NCBI GenBank assembly: GCA_025359915.1
Contig: JANYDE010000073.1
Location: forward strand, 994 to 64,993
DNA: 64,000 bases
Reading direction: 5' to 3'
Source of the DNA: Chamaesiphon sp. 336R_metabinner_41
GTDB taxonomy: Bacteria > Cyanobacteriota > Cyanobacteriia > Cyanobacteriales > Chamaesiphonaceae
Below are positions 7,370 to 62,100 of this stretch, piece after piece. Under the pieces are notes generated by a model, which saw only the letters and a program-made list of their open reading frames with translations, was not told the origin of the DNA and ran no database searches. Each line of letters starts with the position of its first letter. Position 1 is the first letter of the stretch. Position numbers and translations under genes: made by a program.

Positions 7370-9232
7370 ATGAATTATCTCAGGTTTGATCTAATCATTA
7401 TTGCAGTAATTGCTACTAACTTTTATCCATTCAGATCCTCAGCCGAAATTGCCCAAGCGAATCCCAACCTAAATCCACCCAGTCAGCGAACTATTTCCCC
7501 TCACCGACTCGCGCAACAATCGCCTCAGAACTTTGTCAGTCAAGGTACAGAAATATTTTTAAATGGTAAAACTGTAAATATCCCTTGGGGACAATGGCAA
7601 GTTGGAAATACTTTACACTTGGGTATCAGTGATACTGCTCTCGATCGACAGATGGGGGTAGAATTGTATAATAATAGCAATTATCAGACCCAACCGATCG
7701 ATTGGTATGGAACTCAACGAACACCAATTAATCTCGTCGCTAAACTCAGTCAGCAATATCGCTATCTAGACATTACCGAACTAGCGAAAAGTAGCGGTTG
7801 GAAATGGCAATTAGTCGGCGGTAAACTTCAACTCAATACCCCCACAACTAGAATTACCAATGTTCAACGTCAAACCATCCCGAAAAACGGTAAAATCGCG
7901 GTCACACTAAACAGATATACACCCTGGAAACTCAGCCAAACACCGACAGAAGGCTACCTGACGATCGAAGCAACTGCCGATCCGATCTTACTCTCTCAAT
8001 TTAACACACCATCGGTCGTCGATCCAGCTAATATCGATCCTGACGACGATCCTACCGCTGAGAAACTAGAATATAAAGTCACCAGCAATAATAATCAAAC
8101 AATTATCCAATTTCCGATCGTCAAAGGTCAACGAGCTAGGGCAAAATTATTATCAGCCACTAACCTCGAAATTAGCATCAATCCCACTCCTGAAATGATA
8201 CCCGATCGAGAGATAAATTGGGCACCAGGATTGAAATGGCGACAAAAGTGGATCAAATTGGGAATCAATAACTTCCCCGTTAGTTATCTCGAACTAGATC
8301 CGCGTCAAAAGGGAATTAAACTTAGACCGATCTTACCGCAAGAACCCAATCTCGTCGGTAGCAATCACCTCATTAAATTTGCACCACCAACCCAAGTCGC
8401 CGCCGCAATTAATGGCGGCTATTTCAATCGCAATAATCGGATGCCCTTAGGTGCAATCAAACGCGATGGTAAATGGTTATCCAGTCCCATTCTAAATCGT
8501 GGTGCGATCGGTTGGAGCGACAATGGCAAAATCCAGATCGCCCGCCTCCAAATCCAGGAAACTCTAAATACGTCCAAAAATGAACAATTAAATATCCTCG
8601 CGCTCAATAGTGCTTATGTGCAAACCGGAATCAGTCGTTACACCAGTGACTGGGGTAAAACCTATACGCCGATTCAAACTGACGAACTAATCATCACCGT
8701 CGAACAAGATCGAGTCACCCAAATCATCCCAGGTAACGCCATTGGCAGCATCAACGTTCCCATCCCTATCAATGGTTATTTACTAGCCTTGCGCGGGCAA
8801 CCAGAGCTGTCTGGAAGCATCCCCATCGGTACCACCCTCACCCTCAAACGACAAATTACCCCACCCGAACTCGATACCTATCCCCAGATTCTCGCCGCTG
8901 GCCCCTGGCTGGTACAATCGGGTAAAATAGTCCTTGATGCCAAAGGTGAAAACTTCGGCGCAGCCTTTAGTAAAGAATCCGCAGTTCGCAGCGCGATCGC
9001 CAGCACATCTACAGGTAATATTATCTTAGTCGCCGTCCACAATCGCACAGGTGGCAAAGGTCCAACCCTAACAGAGATGGCGCAACTGATGCAACAAATG
9101 GGCACAGTAGACGCACTCAATCTCGATGGTGGTAGCTCTACCAGTCTATATCTTGGCGGACAATTAGTCGATCGAGCCTCAGCCACCGCCGCACGAGTAC
9201 ACAATGCGATCGGTATCTCCATCGAACCATAA
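7370..9232 (+). CDS. Phosphodiester glycosidase (NAGPA-like) family protein
   Basis: AAINGGYFN, AVRSAIA, ALNLDGGSSTSL; N-terminal signal-like region. Confidence 0.85.
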   Translation: MNYLRFDLIIIAVIATNFYPFRSSAEIAQANPNLNPPSQRTISPHRLAQQSPQNFVSQGTEIFLNGKTVNIPWGQWQVGNTLHLGISDTALDRQMGVELYNNSNYQTQPIDWYGTQRTPINLVAKLSQQYRYLDITELAKSSGWKWQLVGGKLQLNTPTTRITNVQRQTIPKNGKIAVTLNRYTPWKLSQTPTEGYLTIEATADPILLSQFNTPSVVDPANIDPDDDPTAEKLEYKVTSNNNQTIIQFPIVKGQRARAKLLSATNLEISINPTPEMIPDREINWAPGLKWRQKWIKLGINNFPVSYLELDPRQKGIKLRPILPQEPNLVGSNHLIKFAPPTQVAAAINGGYFNRNNRMPLGAIKRDGKWLSSPILNRGAIGWSDNGKIQIARLQIQETLNTSKNEQLNILALNSAYVQTGISRYTSDWGKTYTPIQTDELIITVEQDRVTQIIPGNAIGSINVPIPINGYLLALRGQPELSGSIPIGTTLTLKRQITPPELDTYPQILAAGPWLVQSGKIVLDAKGENFGAAFSKESAVRSAIASTSTGNIILVAVHNRTGGKGPTLTEMAQLMQQMGTVDALNLDGGSSTSLYLGGQLVDRASATAARVHNAIGISIEP

Positions 9233-9495: not shown

Positions 9496-10752
9496 CTAAA
9501 CAGCATCATCCAAAACATGGCGAGTGCTGCGCCATGTCCAAACTCCAGCTACTATTACAATGGCACTCATGCCCCACAAAACTGGCTCGAGACCAAATTG
9601 CTCGGTTAAGGGACCAGTGACGATGAGAGGAATAGCGATGGCAATATTGACGGCATTATTTTGGAAGCCAAATACTTTACCACGCATTGATTCTGGAGTC
9701 CGTTCCTGAATCAGGGTTTGCATTGGCACCTGAATCAATGAAGCTCCAAATCCGAGCACTCCCGCACACAATAAACCGATCGATAAGTTACTAACAAATG
9801 TGAAAATAGCTAGTACCGAACTCATGATGACAAATCCTACCAATGGCAGGGATTTTTGCTGGATTCGCTGCCCGAAATGACCTAATATCCCCGCGCCGAA
9901 GACTAACCCAATTCCGGCTGGAGCCACTAGCAACCCAAATTGTTTGGGTATTAAACCGACTTGAGCAGTCAGAGCAATCGCGAGAATAGGTAGAGCAGCG
10001 ATAGTGGAAGATAGGACAGCTATTTGTAGCATTGCGCTAAGTAATAATTTATTGCTTTGTAAATATCTAAAACCATCTTTTAGCTCATACAATGGGTCAA
10101 TTTTACGCGCATGTCTGCTAGTATCAATAGTCTCTCTAATTTTAACTAATTGACCTAAACCTGCGGCAATTAAATAGAATGATGCCACTAATATTTCCTG
10201 AGAACCATCTCTAGCAATTTGAGTGACTGCGGTGAGAATGACTTCACCAATGCCAAATCCTAGAATCACCGAACCTACGTTAGTTGTGGCAAACAGCGCA
10301 TTTGCTGTCAGGAGATTTTCGGGTGGAACAACCAGGGGAATAGCTGACTGCTCGGCAGGTGCGAATGCTTGGGTAACGACGGAATGCGCGAAGATAATCG
10401 CCAGTAAAATCGAGAATTCTTTGGGCAAGATCGGCAAGAGTAGAATGAGTCCTGCTCGCAAGATATCCGCTACTACCATGATCTGCTTTTTCGGGTAGCG
10501 ATCGACAAATATACCCGCTGCGGCACCTAGTAAAATTGCCGGAATCGTGGAAGCCACCATAAGATAGGAGCTGGAAGAGGCTGCAAATCTTGCCGGAACG
10601 TGATAATCCGTCAACAACGCAATACCCATCACCAACAGCACTTTGTCCGCAATCTGCGAGAAGATTTGCCCACCCCAGAGAAATAAGAACGGACGATTTT
10701 TAAGTAGAGCCTTAAATCCACTCGCCTCTGTGGGTGTTTTTGCAGGTATCAT
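9496..10752 (-). CDS. MFS transporter (H+ antiporter/macrolide efflux-like)
   Basis: About 12 hydrophobic segments, GIFVDRYPKKQIM motif A, RGKVFG. Confidence 0.9.
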   Translation of the reverse strand: MIPAKTPTEASGFKALLKNRPFLFLWGGQIFSQIADKVLLVMGIALLTDYHVPARFAASSSSYLMVASTIPAILLGAAAGIFVDRYPKKQIMVVADILRAGLILLLPILPKEFSILLAIIFAHSVVTQAFAPAEQSAIPLVVPPENLLTANALFATTNVGSVILGFGIGEVILTAVTQIARDGSQEILVASFYLIAAGLGQLVKIRETIDTSRHARKIDPLYELKDGFRYLQSNKLLLSAMLQIAVLSSTIAALPILAIALTAQVGLIPKQFGLLVAPAGIGLVFGAGILGHFGQRIQQKSLPLVGFVIMSSVLAIFTFVSNLSIGLLCAGVLGFGASLIQVPMQTLIQERTPESMRGKVFGFQNNAVNIAIAIPLIVTGPLTEQFGLEPVLWGMSAIVIVAGVWTWRSTRHVLDDAV

Positions 10753-10763
10753 AGGCTAGCTTA

Positions 10764-10810
10764 GGGGAAAGGGGAAAGGGGAAAGGGGAAAGGGGAAAGG
10801 GGAAAGGGGA
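10764..10810. repeat. Heptamer tandem repeat (GGGGAAA)x6+
   Basis: Six perfect units plus a partial unit upstream of the MFS start. Confidence 0.9.
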
Positions 10811-10966
10811 CAGCAATGTTGCTATTCACGATTCCACCAACGTCTGTAGCGATTGTACCTAGTTATCGGTCAAAAAGTTTAGGAATGTGTGACAGTCTAT
10901 CTAGTGGACAGTCGATCGGGAATCGGGGATAGTGAATAGTAAGTATTAATTCGTCCCGCGCCTGAA

Positions 10967-18336: not shown

Positions 18337-20550
18337 ATGGCAACTAAATTCCCCAAATTTAGCCAAGACCTAGCACAAGATCCGACCACTCGGCGGATCT
18401 GGTACGGGATCGCCACGGCTCACGACTTTGAAAGCCATGATGGCATGACTGAGGAAAATCTTTACCAAAAGATTTTCGCTACTCACTTCGGTCATCTAGG
18501 TATTATCTTCCTCTGGGCTTCTGGCAACCTGTTCCATGTCGCTTGGCAAGGCAACTTCGAGCAGTGGATCAAAGATCCGCTCAACGTAAGTCCCATCGCT
18601 CACGCAATTTGGGATCCTCACTTCGGTAAACCAGCACTCGATGCCTTTACCCAAGCGGGCGCATCCAATCCAGTTAACATCGCATACTCCGGTGTCTACC
18701 AGTGGTGGTATACCCAAGGAATGCGATCGAACGATGACCTGTACATGGGTTCGATCTTCTTGCTCGTCCTCGCTTCAGTCATGTTGTTCGCTGGTTGGTT
18801 GCACCTTCAACCAAAGTTCCGTCCTAGTTTGTCCTGGTTCAAGAATGCTGAATCTCGCCTCAATCACCACTTAGCTGGATTGTTTGGCGTTAGTTCACTC
18901 GCTTGGACTGGTCACTTAGTCCACGTTGCGATCCCCGAATCTCGCGGTCAGCACGTTGGTTGGGACAACTTCACCAGTGTATTACCTCACCCCGCAGGGT
19001 TAGCCCCCTTCTTCACAGGTAACTGGGGTGTATATGCAGAAAATCCAGATACCGCAGAACAGATATTTGGCACAGCTCAAGGATCTGGGACAGCAATCTT
19101 GACTTTCTTGGGCGGATTCCATCCTCAGACTCAATCTTTGTGGTTGACTGATATGGCCCACCACCACCTAGCAATCGCGGTATTATTCATCGTTGCTGGG
19201 CATATGTACCGGACTAACTTTGGCATCGGTCACAGCATCAAGGATATCCTCAATGCTCACAAAGCACCAAGTGGAAAGATGGGTGCTGGTCACAAAGGTC
19301 TTTATGACACTGTGAACAACTCCTTGCACTTCCAACTAGGCTTGGCACTGGCTTCACTGGGTGTAGTTACTTCTTTAGTAGCTCAACACATGTACTCCAT
19401 GCCTCCCTATGCGTTCTTAGCACAGGATTTCACTACCCAAGCCGCACTTTACACTCATCACCAGTACATCGCTGGATTCTTGATGGTTGGTGCATTTGCT
19501 CACGGTGCGATCTTCTGGGTTCGTGACTACGATCCAGAGCAAAACCGCGACAACGTTCTAGCACGAATGCTAGAGCACAAAGAGGCGATTATCTCCCACT
19601 TAAGTTGGGTGTCTCTGTTCCTTGGATTCCATACCCTCGGTCTTTACGTTCACAATGATGTCGTAGTTGCCTTTGGTACACCTGAGAAACAAATTTTAAT
19701 CGAACCTGTGTTCGCACAGTGGATTCAAGCTTCGCATGGAAAACTATTGTATGGTTTTGATGTGTTGCTATCCAATCCAGATAGTAATGCTTATACCGCC
19801 TATCCAAACTATGCAGATGTTTGGTTACCTGGTTGGTTAGCAGCAATCAACTCTGGCAAGAACTCCCTGTTCCTCACCATCGGACCTGGCGATTTCTTAG
19901 TCCACCATGCAATCGCATTAGGACTCCACACCACCACCCTGATCTTGGTCAAAGGTGCGTTGGATGCTCGTGGTTCCAAATTAATGCCCGACAAGAAAGA
20001 CTTCGGCTATGCCTTCCCTTGCGATGGTCCTGGTCGTGGTGGTACTTGTGACATCTCTGGTTGGGATTCCTTCTACCTAGCGATGTTCTGGATGTTAAAC
20101 ACCCTCGGTTGGGTAACATTCTACTGGCACTGGAAACACTTAGGAATTTGGCAAGGTAACGTAGCACAATTCAATGAGTCCTCGACTTATATCATGGGTT
20201 GGTTACGCGATTACCTCTGGCAGAACTCCTCACAGTTAATTAACGGTTACAACCCTTACGGGATGAACAACCTGTCTGTATGGGCATGGATGTTCCTCTT
20301 CGGACACCTCGTCTGGGCGACTGGCTTTATGTTCTTAATTAGCTGGCGTGGTTACTGGCAAGAGTTGATCGAAACTGTTGTCTGGGCGCACGAGCGGACT
20401 CCACTTGCGAACCTAGTTCGTTGGAAAGACAAGCCTGTTGCACTCTCGATCGTTCAAGCTCGTGTTGTTGGTCTAGCTCACTTTACAGTTGGTTATATCC
20501 TCACCTACGCGGCCTTCCTGATCGCCTCTACTGCTGGTAAGTTCGGTTAG
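18337..20550 (+). CDS. psaB: Photosystem I core protein PsaB
   Basis: [22 protein letters not shown]; [12 protein letters not shown]. Confidence 0.99.
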
Positions 20551-20575: not shown

Positions 20576-20608
20576 AAAGCCCCCTTCACTTAGTGTTGGG
20601 GGCTTTTT
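20576..20608 (+). terminator. Rho-independent terminator of psaAB
   Basis: AAAGCCCCC...GGGGGCTTTTT stem with T tract. Confidence 0.85.
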
Positions 20609-20993
20609 AGATGATGGGTTAACTCTTTATGGTCTGAACTATGATTAGAATGATTGAATGATGGACTATGATGAGCTGCTATCTGAGAATCCTAGTCTAT
20701 CTATTAATCTGACAAATCATAAGCCTAGTCGAAAAGTGCTTAAAAACGAGAATGTTGAGAACATCAAAAATTTTTCAATGATGAGACTGGCTATATTAAA
20801 ACAGACAAACTATCACAGTCATACAGCACCTTCCATCAACACGAAGTGCAGTAATACAAGATGAATAAATCATTATTATGAAACCATATGCTGTATTATA
20901 CTCGTAGTGAAAAAGGAAGTAGAGTCTACGATCTAAAACCATTTAGATCTAAATTCATCCCGATAGTGGTGGGGAAGGTGTGGATATAAGAGT

Positions 20994-21054
20994 GGTAGAT
21001 GCACCCTGATGATTCGTCCCTGACTTATTTCGATAAGTTGGGGCTTTTTCTTTT
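20994..21054 (+). ncRNA. Putative sRNA copy 1 (NsiR1-like)
   Basis: GGTAGATGCACCCTG, then a hairpin with TTCG loop and T tract; TCCCGA 36 nt upstream. Confidence 0.5.
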
Positions 21055-21112
21055 TAGCTAAATTAATTTAATTTCGTCCTGATAGTGGTGGGGAAGATGT
21101 GTATATAGGAGT

Positions 21113-21154
21113 GGTAGATGCATCCTGGCTTACTTCGGTAAGTCGGGTTTTTTT
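21113..21154 (+). ncRNA. Putative sRNA copy 2 (NsiR1-like, shorter)
   Basis: GGTAGATGCATCCTGGCTTAC-TTCG-GTAAGTCGGG-T7; TCCTGA 36 nt upstream. Confidence 0.5.
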
Positions 21155-21220
21155 ATTTGTCACTAAATTAATTTAATTTTGTCCCGATATTAGCGGGGAC
21201 GGTGTTCAACACCAGACTAC

Positions 21221-22291
21221 TTAAATTATTGCCGGTAAAATAATTAAATTATCAACAACTTCAATCTGGATCTTATTTTTTAATACTACATCGTTCCAAC
21301 TTTCATATACTGATGGTTGACAGTATCTATGAATTTGAAGATGATATTCTCCCTCAAGACCTGTCATCACCGTCATCAAATTAGTCGCCGCTGCTTTTAC
21401 GCCATCATCTGTAGATCGAGAACCAAGATAAAAATCATTTCCTGGCCATGAAACATGATCCCAAGCCACAAAACTAAACAATTTGTAATCCGTGAAGTCA
21501 TCTCCATCTTCTGCATATTTTTGGAGCCGACATAATTGAGGTTTGTCGATATTTCCCTTCGTTAAAGGTCTGACAAATAAACTAATTCGATCGATCTCAA
21601 TTCTTTCATTCTCGCACTCCTGATATGGATCGAAATAAACAACCTTAATATTAGTAAACTTATTCCCATGAGTTTCGAGAAAAGCGATCAGTGTTTTTCT
21701 TAATTGGGATCCTAACTGTCCGTGGAACTTACCTGCAAATTGTCCACAGCCCATGCCAGGAATCGTGATTAGTGCCATCTTCCCCTTCTGTTTGGCTAGC
21801 TCATTTATCTGAATAAATGCTGGCAAAAATCTTCGTTCGTAGAGTCGATAATAGCCGTCAGGATTGATTTCATTATTAATTGTCACTTCTTCCCAGTCAA
21901 CGGGAGTAATCTGATTACCATTGCGTAAGAGTGCGCTTGGAGTGAATATTAAAGTAGCTGCAAATGGGACTTGATGCAAATCTGGATGGCGATGTCTACC
22001 ATTATCATAGACGGTGACTGGTGTAACGATACTAATATCGCCTAAAATAGAAAGTTCGTCTTGATTCCAATCAGTGCTATTTCCAGATACCTCGAATTCC
22101 GCGAAAATTTGTGGACGTTTAGTTCTCATCAACAGTTCGATAAATTCAACTGTTGTGACCTGATTTAGATCGATATGTTTCAATCGATCTCCGACATGTA
22201 CACCAGGACTACTACCCGTCTTTAATCTCGCTAGATAAGCAGATGCTCGATCGAATGTTTCCCGATTAATCACAACCTGATAGCTGTTCAT
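21221..22291 (-). CDS. Uncharacterised protein, possibly macrodomain/PARG-like fold
   Basis: 356-aa ORF; TIPGMGCGQFAG resembles the GxGxF loop of macro/PARG folds (inference). Confidence 0.6.
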   Translation of the reverse strand: MNSYQVVINRETFDRASAYLARLKTGSSPGVHVGDRLKHIDLNQVTTVEFIELLMRTKRPQIFAEFEVSGNSTDWNQDELSILGDISIVTPVTVYDNGRHRHPDLHQVPFAATLIFTPSALLRNGNQITPVDWEEVTINNEINPDGYYRLYERRFLPAFIQINELAKQKGKMALITIPGMGCGQFAGKFHGQLGSQLRKTLIAFLETHGNKFTNIKVVYFDPYQECENERIEIDRISLFVRPLTKGNIDKPQLCRLQKYAEDGDDFTDYKLFSFVAWDHVSWPGNDFYLGSRSTDDGVKAAATNLMTVMTGLEGEYHLQIHRYCQPSVYESWNDVVLKNKIQIEVVDNLIILPAII

Positions 22292-44250: not shown

Positions 44251-45309
44251 TCAGAGAGGTTTTGTCGAACCTTCAATTGGTTTCAGGTTATTCTGCTGCC
44301 ATAATAGGGCGGTGAGAATAACTAGTGTACCGAGCAACATGGCACCGATCAATTGATGAGCAACTGTCAGGGTTTCTACTTGGAGATGCAGTCTGAAAGT
44401 CGCTGTACCTAGTAGGATTTGACAGACTAATAAAGCACCGACAGTTTTAGCTAGATTGAGACAAAATTTAGATGAATTCGGATTGCGCCAAATGACGATC
44501 GTTACCGCAATACAACTCAATGTTGCGGGTACGACACCGATGATGTGATTATTCATCACGGTACAAAGTTCAGAATTGCCAAAGCACTGATGCAATGCCC
44601 AGCGGGAGCCAACTAATCCACCGAGGATGCTCTGGATGTAAACAAAGATTGCAGCGGTGAAGGGGAGTAAATACAGGCGATTACGGTATCCTGAAGCTAT
44701 TGGAGTTGTTGCGGAGATTTTTACCCCACCCCAGCCCTCCCCTTGTAAAGGGGAGGGAGCTAGAGCCACCCCTTTATAAGGGGGGGTTGGGGGGGTAGTC
44801 ACAGGGAGTAACAGGGTACCGATCGAGAGTAAGGTAATAAAGAACAGTAAGGCTGTGCCCAGGTGGGCTGTGACGATATCAAAGCGGAGTAATTCGGTGA
44901 CTGTGAACGCGCCCAATGCTCCTTGGATGACAATTAGGCTCAGGGCGAAGGTAGTTGCCCAGGGGAGCCAGCGGGGAAGCTGTTGGCGGTACCACCAGGA
45001 TGAGCCAGCTAAGAATAAGGTGCTCAATCCGATTAATCCAGCATCGAGGCGATGAAACCATTCTAAGAATACCTGAAGATTCATCTGCTGGGTGGGTACT
45101 AGTTGCCCATAGCATAGGGGCCAATCAGGGCAAGCTAAACCAGCGTTCATTACCCTAGTAGCACTACCTACCGCCATCAATAGCAGTGTAGCAAAGGCAA
45201 TCTTCCAGATCGATCGCCGGATCCGGGTTTGGATCATAATATTTCCGCTCTCTTGCCGCGATTCTTGTTCGTCAGCCGAAGATTGAGGGATAAATGCAGA
45301 ATCTGACAT
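44251..45309 (-). CDS. ctaA: Heme A synthase (COX15/CtaA) with an in-frame repeat-derived insertion
   Basis: GLACPDWPLC, EWFHR, VTAHLG, VAHQ; insert PPTPPYKGVALAPSPLQGEGWGGVKIS. Confidence 0.92.
   Translation of the reverse strand: MSDSAFIPQSSADEQESRQESGNIMIQTRIRRSIWKIAFATLLLMAVGSATRVMNAGLACPDWPLCYGQLVPTQQMNLQVFLEWFHRLDAGLIGLSTLFLAGSSWWYRQQLPRWLPWATTFALSLIVIQGALGAFTVTELLRFDIVTAHLGTALLFFITLLSIGTLLLPVTTPPTPPYKGVALAPSPLQGEGWGGVKISATTPIASGYRNRLYLLPFTAAIFVYIQSILGGLVGSRWALHQCFGNSELCTVMNNHIIGVVPATLSCIAVTIVIWRNPNSSKFCLNLAKTVGALLVCQILLGTATFRLHLQVETLTVAHQLIGAMLLGTLVILTALLWQQNNLKPIEGSTKPL
44703..44797. repeat. Coding copy of the GC-rich palindromic repeat inside ctaA
   Basis: Aligns with intergenic 3511-3603; ctaA frame remains open. 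Confidence 0.88.
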
Positions 45310-59834: not shown

Positions 59835-62100
59835 GTGCGATTCGTTGGAGATGAATCACGGTGAAAGCCCGTAAATAACCCTCCCAAGCTGGCTACCAGA
59901 CATGTAGCAATATAAGGCTTGAACTGTCCGATTGATGCAGGTGAAAACCCTGCTCTCCAAACTCAGGAGTAACTCCTTATCTGCCCACGATGACCCGACT
60001 CGGAATTCGGGAGGTTTCGTTGCTGGGAACAGGGCTGAATCAGACGCTAATTGCAAGCGACACTGCGGCTAACAGGGAGTCCTCATGGTGAAATAGTGCC
60101 TAGAAAAGCAACCTACGATGAGGCAGTCGCAATTCCTATGACTGACCACGCTAGAGAATAGTATCCCGCCGCGTATCATTTTAACAGCGGTATGAGTAGG
60201 GGGTTCTAGCGGTTGAAGTGGCACCACCTAAAAGGACTATCAATCTTTCGGTCGGAACGAATAAAAACGTACTTGAGGTCTATGAGTGGTCGCACTCATG
60301 GTAAGCCAGACGAGCGGACTAATTCCCCAAGTACGGGTAGGACAGACCGTAATTGGTCTGAGGTATCCAGAACACACAAACAGATGCAGAGCATGATTGG
60401 ACACAGTTTAACAACTAGTGAATCTTGGAGGAAATTACCCTGGAAGCAATTCCGCCGTAATCTCTTTCGCCTACAGAAGCGCGTGTACAAAGCAGTTCAA
60501 GTTGGTAATAAGCGAAAAGCGAGGTCTTTACAGAAACTGATTCTAAAATCTCAAGCAGCCAGATTATTAGCCATTCGACAAGTAACGCAGTTAAATGCTG
60601 GGAAGAAAACAGCAGGTATCGATGGTAAAGCGTCCCTCAATTTTGAAGAACGCCTTACACTAGCCCACGAGCTATCACAACATCATATCAACTGGAAGCA
60701 TCAGGGTTTACGAGAAATCCCCATTCCTAAAAAAGATGGTTCAACTCGAATACTCAAAGTGCCTACAATGGCGGACAGAGCTTGGCAATGCCTCGCAAAA
60801 TACGCCCTCGAACCAGCACATGAAGCAACCTTCCACGCAAAGAGTTATGGATTTAGACCAGGACGCTCTGCACATGATGCACAGAAAATCCTTCAAATAA
60901 ACCTAAACTCTAAAAACAACGGTATCAATAAACGAGTAATCGAATTAGATATCGAGGCATGTTTCGACCGGATTAACCACTCGTCTATCATGGATAACCT
61001 AATTGCCCCTACAGGGCTAAAGCTAGGCATCTTCAGATGTCTTAAAGCTGGAACGAACGTAGGATTCCCAGACCAAGGCACTCCGCAGGGAGGTGTAGTT
61101 AGTCCTCTGCTTGCAAATATTGCACTCAACGGAATCGAAAGTATCCACAGTTATAACACTCGTTATAACAAGAAAGGAATCCCCACAGGAGACCACAAAG
61201 AACCATCAATCCGATACGCGGACGACATGGTTATTATCCTTCGACCCGAAGACAATGCTGAAGCAATACTTAGAGATATTAGCGAATTTTTAGCTGTCAG
61301 GGGGATGAAAGTTAGCGAAAAGAAGACAAAAGTTACAGCAACGATAGATGGTTTTGACTTCCTCGGCTGGAACTTTAAAGTCCAGAAAAACGGCAAGTTT
61401 CGTAGTACGCCTTCTGTGGAGAATTACAAAGCATTCCGCAAGAAGATAAAAACTATCATTAACAACTCAAACTATGGTTCCACACACAAGGCTGGAAAAC
61501 TAGCCCCCGTGGTAAGAGGATGGAGAAATTACCATAAGTACTGCAAGATGGACGGGTCTAGGAACTCCTTGTACTTTATCCAAAAACGGGCTTATTCAGT
61601 ATTTAACAGGGAGTGTAAACAGAATCGCGACAGCAGTAAAAAGTTACTGAACCAAGCGTTTCCAACAGTCTCTTACTCTGAAAATAAACATATCAATGTC
61701 AAGGGCAATAAATCTCCCTACGACGGCGATTTTTCCTACTGGAGCGAACGACACAGTAAACTCTACGACGGAAACACCTCTAAAGCTATCAAAAAGCAAA
61801 ACCGTAAATGTGCAGCCTGTGGATTAACATTCATCGGTGAAGAAAAGGTACATTTACATCATATAGATGGAAACCACAACAATTGGGACAAAAAGAATCT
61901 AGTAGCAATACATGAATCTTGTCACGATTACGTGCATATGAACAACAGGGGAAAAGTAGTTGAAATATACGAACCCTGCTAATCTGAACCTCACATGAGC
62001 AAAGCGCAAGCTTAGGATATCGGGAGCGCAGTGCGATGAAAGTCGCACGCTGCGATCTAACAGAGAGGGGCGAGGTTTAATAGCCTCCCTCGACTCTACC
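59835..62100 (+). mobile_element. Group II intron 2 (complete, nested in the intron 1 RT gene)
   Basis: 5' GTGCG; DV GAGCGCAGTGCGATGAAAGTCGCACGCTGCGATC (62024-62057); DVI ending CGACTCTAC(C); EBS1 CATTTT pairs with AAAATG, EBS2 CGATG with TATCG. Confidence 0.92.
60393..61982 (+). CDS. ltrA: Group II intron RT/maturase with C-terminal HNH endonuclease
   Basis: GTPQGGVVSPLLANI, YADD (61215-61226), FDFLGW, CAACG...HHIDGNH...HESCH; start 60393 inferred from alignment with the intron 1 ORF. Confidence 0.93.
   Translation: MIGHSLTTSESWRKLPWKQFRRNLFRLQKRVYKAVQVGNKRKARSLQKLILKSQAARLLAIRQVTQLNAGKKTAGIDGKASLNFEERLTLAHELSQHHINWKHQGLREIPIPKKDGSTRILKVPTMADRAWQCLAKYALEPAHEATFHAKSYGFRPGRSAHDAQKILQINLNSKNNGINKRVIELDIEACFDRINHSSIMDNLIAPTGLKLGIFRCLKAGTNVGFPDQGTPQGGVVSPLLANIALNGIESIHSYNTRYNKKGIPTGDHKEPSIRYADDMVIILRPEDNAEAILRDISEFLAVRGMKVSEKKTKVTATIDGFDFLGWNFKVQKNGKFRSTPSVENYKAFRKKIKTIINNSNYGSTHKAGKLAPVVRGWRNYHKYCKMDGSRNSLYFIQKRAYSVFNRECKQNRDSSKKLLNQAFPTVSYSENKHINVKGNKSPYDGDFSYWSERHSKLYDGNTSKAIKKQNRKCAACGLTFIGEEKVHLHHIDGNHNNWDKKNLVAIHESCHDYVHMNNRGKVVEIYEPC

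Follow-up and report, generated by a model that had tools for sequence, protein, structure and literature searches.

Downstream of the psaB gene of a Chamaesiphon genome, a short array of repeated units occupies positions 20958-21216 of the window, the whole 64,000-nucleotide stretch of DNA analysed here. The array lies between the end of psaB, at 20550, and the 3' end of a convergent gene for a MavL-family macrodomain protein. A sequence-only reading of the same DNA had described three units, each beginning with TCCYGA, as a promoter-sRNA-terminator array. All three starts were recovered, as TCCCGA, TCCTGA and TCCCGA, and the description holds for units 1 and 2, whereas unit 3 proved to be a promoter half only. 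The features are collected in Table 1.

Table 1. Features of the NsiR1 array, its neighbours and one further RNA element in the window
Feature	Position	Strand	Details
psaB terminator-like hairpin	20583..20602		own hairpin of psaB, which ends at 20550
Unit 1 promoter	20958..20992	+	-35 TCCCGA 20958-20963, N17, -10 TGGA 20981-20984, 8 nt to predicted start
NsiR1 gene, unit 1, canonical ~60-nt form	20993..21052	+	RF02399 56.2 bits, model positions 1-60
Unit 1 terminator stem	21018..21043		11 pairs, UUCG loop, then T tract
AT-rich inter-unit spacer, copy 1	21058..21074	+	CTAAATTAATTTAATTT, 17 nt; exact repeat, none expected by chance
Unit 2 promoter	21077..21111	+	-35 TCCTGA 21077-21082, N17, TGTA 21100-21103, 8 nt to predicted start
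Short NsiR1 isoform, unit 2, ~43 nt	21112..21155	+	5' end as unit 1 with C12U
Unit 2 terminator stem	21124..21147		10 pairs, UUCG loop, then T tract
AT-rich inter-unit spacer, copy 2	21163..21179	+	same 17 nt, CTAAATTAATTTAATTT; exact repeat
Unit 3 promoter-only remnant	21182..21216	+	TCCCGA 21182-21187; TTCA 21205-21208 in place of TGNA
MavL-family macrodomain protein gene	21221..22291	-	full-length; PF24754 472.7 bits
Group II intron domain V/VI element	62022..62099	+	RF00029 51.7 bits

The two full units follow one layout, consisting of TCCYGA, 17 nt, TG(G/T)A, 8 nt and TGGTAGATGCA(C/T)CCTG. The element GGTAGATGCA(C/T)CCTG begins at 20994 and 21113, exactly 36 nt past the respective TCCYGA starts, in agreement with the earlier description. 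The composite motif TCCYGA-N17-TGKA-N8-TGGTAGATGCAYCCTG occurs at two sites in the window, compared with 0.00 expected from 100 shuffles, and the two promoters are 87% identical (family D2). The 17-nt AT spacers ahead of units 2 and 3 are also identical, as had been claimed.

According to the predicted fold, the 5' segment of the unit 1 RNA, which is invariant, is single-stranded apart from a 3-bp mini-hairpin; the terminator hairpin and a U tract come next. In unit 2 the linker is missing, and the base of the terminator stem is built from the CCUG of the 5' segment; its hairpin folds at -14.3 kcal/mol (z = -3.6). Both hairpins are rich in G+C. The TTCG-loop hairpins and T tracts seen in the letters are thus confirmed, including the point that the two stems are unlike in sequence and that both pair.

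The similarity of unit 3 to the other units (direct repeat D1, 79% identity) stops at 21205 and covers no more than the spacer and the front half of the promoter. Sequence and folding revealed no sRNA body, no terminator and no stable fold downstream of it. The unit is directed into the 3' end of the MavL gene, and no counterpart of it was found in the arrays of two sister species (genomes G018 and G007). Judged by its sequence, unit 3 is the dead promoter of a third NsiR1 gene. The MavL-family gene adjoins the NsiR1 array in the sister species as well; the family is named after a Legionella ADP-ribosylhydrolase effector, and it is found here in a free-living cyanobacterium. On the other side, psaB has a terminator-like hairpin of its own, which sets the units apart from the end of its transcript.

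Family membership and promoter class

The Rfam model of NsiR1, RF02399, has a gathering score of 39 bits. Unit 1 reaches 56.2 bits and unit 2 only 27.7 bits, below the gathering score, so the covariance-model check suggested in the sequence-only reading comes out positive for unit 1 alone. The 5' 15 nt are identical to those of NsiR1 in Nostoc, Calothrix and many other genera, and the predicted start T of both units coincides with position 1 of the model. An identical 5' end, the promoter and conservation are the grounds for classing unit 2 as a short NsiR1 isoform. It is not a damaged copy, because a near-identical short form closes the arrays of both G018 and G007 as their last unit.

The host genome (4.23 Mb, 100% complete) carries four full NsiR1 units at three loci. 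Besides the array, there are single-unit loci at C74:112003-112062 and C35:55101-55159, which score 57.5 and 52.8 bits, respectively, and all four units have the same promoter. A weak match at C67:41525-41572 was discarded as a mere terminator after a phycobilisome linker gene; it has no 5' motif and lies 1.6 kb from a CHAT gene. Likewise, a CRP-family gene near the C74 copy was considered as NtcA and rejected at 56 bits against a cut-off of 245, its best match being weak and PtrA-like.

Of the 37 host-family genomes, which span two genera, 34 contain NsiR1, and the promoter layout of unit 1 recurs in at least 30 units of the family. In an alignment of 22 units from these genomes, nucleotides 2-15 are invariant. 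The terminator helix of the 22 sequences is 94% paired, with compensatory changes at 9 of 12 pairs, and none of 500 shuffles reaches the observed values. An invariant 5' end combined with a covarying terminator indicates RNA genes that are under selection and belong to the NsiR1 family. On this comparative evidence, units 1 and 2 are genuine NsiR1 family genes, and the earlier alternative of a new multicopy sRNA family is rejected.

HetZ is the sigma factor that reads DIF1 promoters, with the consensus TCCGGA-N16-17-TGNA-N7-9-T(start), in which T-35, G-32 and A-30 are reported to be replaceable (Hu et al. 2026, PMC13342950). The same source reports that these promoters are driven in Anabaena by a paralog, HetZ' (alr0202), as well. 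With at most two mismatches to the consensus taken as membership in this class, unit 1 (TCCCGA-N17-TGGA-N8-T) and unit 2 (TCCTGA-N17-TGTA-N8-T) fall within it, each with one mismatch, at G-32. Their boxes begin 35 nt upstream of model position 1, in the place of the DIF1 motif that the sequence-only reading cited for NsiR1 of Nostoc. The -35/-10 architecture and spacing are the same as in HetZ and HetZ' promoters, and the genome encodes a HetZ-family sigma factor with conserved contact residues. The predicted promoters of units 1 and 2 are of the DIF1 or HetZ sigma-factor type, with TCCYGA as the box and not TCCGGA; TCCTGA boxes also precede NsiR1 genes of Drouetiella, Stenomitos and Coleofasciculus.

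The pattern TCC[CGT]GA-N16-17-TGNA is enriched in the intergenic DNA of the host genome, with 40 sites against 16.7 ± 6.8 for permuted -35 boxes. This enrichment hints at a wider regulon of a HetZ-related sigma factor. Many of the intergenic HetZ-type sites show an extended box, TCCTGAT.

The units resemble NsiR1 of Nostoc/Anabaena sp. PCC 7120 (Ionescu et al. 2010, as cited in PMC4030482 and PMC9045159) in the 5' sequence UGGUAGAUGCACCCUGAU, the length of ~60 nt, the terminator hairpin, and the tandem arrangement of genes that each have their own promoter with a DIF1-type box ~35 nt upstream. They differ from it in the box, which is TCCYGA here and TCCGGA there, in the conserved short isoform of Chamaesiphon, and in copy arrangement, with 2+1+1 dispersed copies here and 12 in one array there. 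In Nostocales the array precedes hetF, and one of its copies is antisense to the hetF 5' UTR, whereas the neighbours here are VanY-like, MavL and psaB genes, the VanY-like peptidase gene being the ancestral neighbour in the place that hetF has in PCC 7120.

In the reviews consulted (PMC6596454, PMC4030482), verified cases of NsiR1 are confined to heterocyst formers, and an NsiR1-like RNA, RNA162, has been reported in the non-heterocystous filamentous Limnospira indica PCC 8005 (PMC8400943). The exact 5' motif, with TCCGGA or TCCTGA at the same distance, was found here in Lyngbya PCC 8106, Symploca, Coleofasciculaceae, Nodosilinea and Drouetiella. The same motif and box also occur in Stenomitos, Elainellaceae, Crinalium and Geitlerinema, so that many non-heterocystous filamentous cyanobacteria are represented. 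Like these NsiR1-like RNAs of Limnospira, Lyngbya and others, the Chamaesiphon genes combine the same RNA family and promoter type with a lack of heterocysts.

Host gene content and the HetZ-related sigma factor

Chamaesiphon is unicellular, its order includes filamentous genera such as Crinalium, and Chamaesiphon minutus PCC 6605 is a sequenced strain of the genus. In the NCBI taxonomy, Chamaesiphon is placed in the order Gomontiellales. Gene content was compared across the 37 host-family genomes and 24 other families of the same order. No hetR (PF03574) was found in any of the 37, while 12 of the 24 other families were positive and served as a positive control. Full-length HetF (NF045509) is missing from this genome and the 36 others of the host family; it was found in the 12 hetR-positive genomes and in one further genome (G045). 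In its stead, the host family has a ~540-aa CHAT paralog, which matches model positions 65-386 and is also present in NsiR1-negative genomes. The HetP family (NF037966) is represented in 0 of 37 host-family genomes, compared with four copies in a Nostoc-type genome (G042). For nifH, the best match in this genome scores 219 bits against a cut-off of 394 and is probably ChlL.

The host makes no heterocysts and does not fix nitrogen. The genome check for hetR and hetF that the sequence-only reading had called for revealed neither hetR nor full-length hetF, and HetP-family genes and nifH are missing as well. Since hetR is absent here as in all 37 host-family genomes, NsiR1 expression cannot be HetR-dependent or heterocyst-specific, unlike the HetR-dependent expression of the Nostocales type, which is induced by nitrogen step-down. 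The earlier suggestion of a relocated NsiR1 relative in a non-heterocystous lineage stands: it is carried by the covariance score of unit 1, the 5' end identical to that of Nostocales, the TCCYGA box in the position of DIF1 and the missing hetR. Compared with PCC 7120, the host is a unicellular organism without hetR, hetF, a HetP-family gene or nifH. Other families of the order that have NsiR1 also have hetR and full-length hetF. Non-heterocystous filamentous lineages are reported to retain hetR, hetZ and patU (PMC12669612, PMC8400943); unlike them, the Chamaesiphon family lacks hetR, full-length hetF and HetZ proper, and has a HetZ-related paralog only.

The HetZ seed used for comparison was an ORF of a Nostoc-type genome, picked among weak sigma region 4 matches, in which all 11 published promoter-contact residues line up under one offset and which has a patU-like gene directly downstream. 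In the host genome, C7:29016-30203 (minus strand, 395 aa) shows 51% identity to this seed (E = 4e-111) and is the only gene for a HetZ/HetZ'-type sigma factor, which provides the array with a cognate candidate. On NF037964 (HetZ-related) the protein scores 559 bits, just short of the curated cut-off at 612; its score on NF037963 (HetZ) is 480 bits, and it is slightly nearer to HetZ-related paralogs than to HetZ. Ten of the 11 promoter-contact residues are conserved in it, and at the remaining one it has K61, as do HetZ-related paralogs of other genomes.

No patU follows this gene, the downstream gene being an unrelated 192-aa ORF, and no intact patU was found in the genome. This differs from Anabaena, where the sigma factor sits in a loop with HetR and the anti-sigma factor PatU (PMC13342950), since here there is neither HetR nor an intact patU. 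A 61-aa PatU5-like ORF lies at C4:37837-38022 (minus strand), with 42% identity over 36 aa to the N-terminal part of PatU, including PPLFPWE; a PatU3 part for this ORF was not found. A HetZ-type motif, TCCTGA-N17-TGTA, is located at C4:38359-38385, ~330 nt upstream of the ORF.

While hetR-positive genomes have both HetZ and a HetZ-related paralog, the Chamaesiphon family has the HetZ-related protein only, in 34 of 37 genomes. Of the 25 families sampled, 14 have NsiR1 along with a HetZ-family sigma factor and 11 have neither, in counts that are not phylogenetically independent. This joint presence and absence supports a link between the sigma factor and the promoter. The HetZ-related sigma factor, as the counterpart of HetZ' (alr0202), would then read the NsiR1 promoters. 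The reading that we favour, and consider probable, is that the array at 20958-21216 consists of two independently transcribed NsiR1 genes, of ~60 and ~43 nt, and a dead third promoter, read by the HetZ-related sigma factor and directed at new targets.

Another sigma factor or activator could instead transcribe functional sRNA genes, with TCCYGA being read by something else. The candidates would be a group 2 sigma factor acting through GATATA, or one of the two sigma factors encoded on C14 and C1. In line with this, TGGATATAGGAG also holds a TATA-rich, -10-like hexamer, the genome contains several alternative sigma factors, and three genomes, all fragmented assemblies, bear NsiR1 but gave no HetZ-related match. 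Yet a TTGACA-like -35 is absent and a simple sigma-70 scan yielded no promoter at the units, whereas the conserved boxes and their spacing fit the HetZ consensus, the motif is enriched in intergenic DNA, and NsiR1 co-occurs with the HetZ family. Transcription by another factor is thus rather unlikely, and the HetZ-related protein remains the preferred one.

The two sigma factors on C14 and C1, each of ~400 aa with a central insertion, were also considered as HetZ and rejected: they do not have the published contact residues and belong to a pair of a sigma factor and a DUF1822-type protein instead. Both are ECF-type, with a large insertion between regions 2 and 4 (C14, ~43.5-44.8 kb, region 4 at 44604-44759; C1, ~10.6-11.8 kb, region 4 at 10696-10851). 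In a Nostoc-type genome, a ~380-aa gene comes after each of the equivalent genes. Near the C1 sigma factor gene, at 8227-8907, there is a weak CHAT-domain match.

It may also be asked whether the units are decaying relics of a HetR/HetZ/NsiR1 circuit inherited from a filamentous ancestor, neither expressed nor used. The loss of hetR, hetF, HetP-family genes and intact patU would fit such decay, as would the clearly dead unit 3, the rearrangement that broke the array, and the small number of copies (four here, whereas some hetR-positive genomes of the order gave 9-17 matches). However, retention by 34 of the 37 genomes across both genera, the conservation of the 5' end and of both promoter boxes, and a terminator in which pairing is kept through double changes are unlike relics, and the matching sigma factor has been kept together with its contact residues. 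This makes decay very improbable, and selection on working NsiR1 genes is the reading followed below.

Locus history

In G018 and G007, the genes run from arginine decarboxylase through the VanY-like peptidase, the NsiR1 array with long units followed by the short one, and MavL to ruvA. This order places the ancestral array between the gene for a VanY-like peptidoglycan peptidase and the MavL gene. In the present genome the ancestral locus has been split inside the array. One piece, on C35, consists of the VanY-like gene and one long unit. The other, in the window, has another long unit, followed by the short one, the promoter remnant and the MavL gene, with psaB as its new neighbour. The VanY-like gene is not a neighbour of the array in G003 or in the sister genus.

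Because a rearrangement split the ancestral locus, the adjacency to psaB is incidental. The position downstream of psaB was noted correctly in the sequence-only reading, but as a setting it is an accident, and the linkage is absent in G018 and G007. The idea that the repeats act in cis, as a psaB 3' processing or terminator array or as antisense regulators of MavL and not as genes for trans-acting sRNAs, can practically be set aside: the location between psaB and the MavL 3' end and the direction of unit 3 into MavL speak for it, but psaB has its own hairpin, its linkage is missing in the sister species, each unit has its own promoter and terminator, and identical units stand at two unrelated loci of the same genome.

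Candidate targets and the heterocyst-independent setting

The validated targets of NsiR1 in Nostoc are the hetF 5' UTR and the hetP-like gene alr3234 (PMC9045159). As both are missing in Chamaesiphon, in contrast to PCC 7120, the targets must differ here. By analogy with Nostoc, NsiR1 would act through its invariant, unstructured 5' segment, pairing with translation start regions. The best candidate target may be the gene for the VanY-like D,D-carboxypeptidase, the ancestral divergent neighbour of the array. In G009 and G018 its leader reads CAGGGUGCAUC-AUG-ACUAC, in which 11 nt directly next to the AUG are exactly complementary to NsiR1 nt 6-16. The complementarity is weak in this genome, with a match of 7 nt and some flanking pairs; G007 has the same 7-nt match, and G012 and G020 have none. 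For arginine decarboxylase, the other conserved neighbour, no pairing of NsiR1 with the leaders was found.

Among the 3817 ORF start regions of this genome, matches of at least 7 nt to the NsiR1 5' end occur in 72 (p≈0.02) and a match of at least 11 nt in one. A single 12-nt match, TGGTAGATGCAC, lies at C7:22984-22995 on the plus strand, where its complement covers positions -21 to -10 of a gene for a 329-aa secreted protein on the minus strand. A genome-wide scan by duplex energy gave -31.7 kcal/mol at best, for the enolase leader, which is no better than the minima of shuffled seeds (-29.0 ± 1.7), and a search for near-perfect complements of the 19-nt 5' end returned only the NsiR1 genes themselves at up to two mismatches. 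The VanY leader and the 12-nt site on C7 are candidate targets, not findings. The secreted protein gene lies ~6 kb from the HetZ-related gene.

In the literature, NsiR1 is regarded as a marker of heterocyst development that depends on HetR and acts on hetF and a hetP homolog (PMC6596454, PMC9045159). Neither the RNA family nor the promoter class is new; the peculiarity of this case lies in a unicellular host without hetR. Of the partners of NsiR1, the HetZ'-type sigma factor alone remains in Chamaesiphon, so that the pair of sigma factor and sRNA is separated from the rest of the heterocyst network and its older function becomes testable. The host is also a simple system for studying what role the pair had before heterocysts arose, and strain PCC 6605 may be available for such work.

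The genes beside NsiR1 share a theme of cell wall and cell division, with VanY-like and M23 peptidase genes in Chamaesiphon and the division gene hetF in Nostocales. In several Nodosilinea loci, the NsiR1 gene adjoins that for D-alanine--D-alanine ligase (ddl). This recurrence suggests a possible link between NsiR1 and peptidoglycan genes. A tentative extension, which we regard as doubtful on the whole, is that the HetZ'-type sigma factor and NsiR1 form an old, heterocyst-independent circuit steering wall remodelling or the asymmetric, budding-like division of Chamaesiphon, partly by blocking translation of the VanY-like gene. Such a circuit would have outlived the loss of HetR, HetZ, PatU, HetF and HetP in Chamaesiphon, and if this were true, the heterocyst role in Nostocales would represent a later re-use of a cell-division or cell-wall circuit.

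A further observation concerns the Nostocales themselves. At eight loci of heterocyst formers in this group, an extra single-copy NsiR1-like gene (GGTAGATGCACCCTGGTTAAGCCC...) with a TCCGGA box was found, in most cases beside cobM and lgt and apart from the hetF array.
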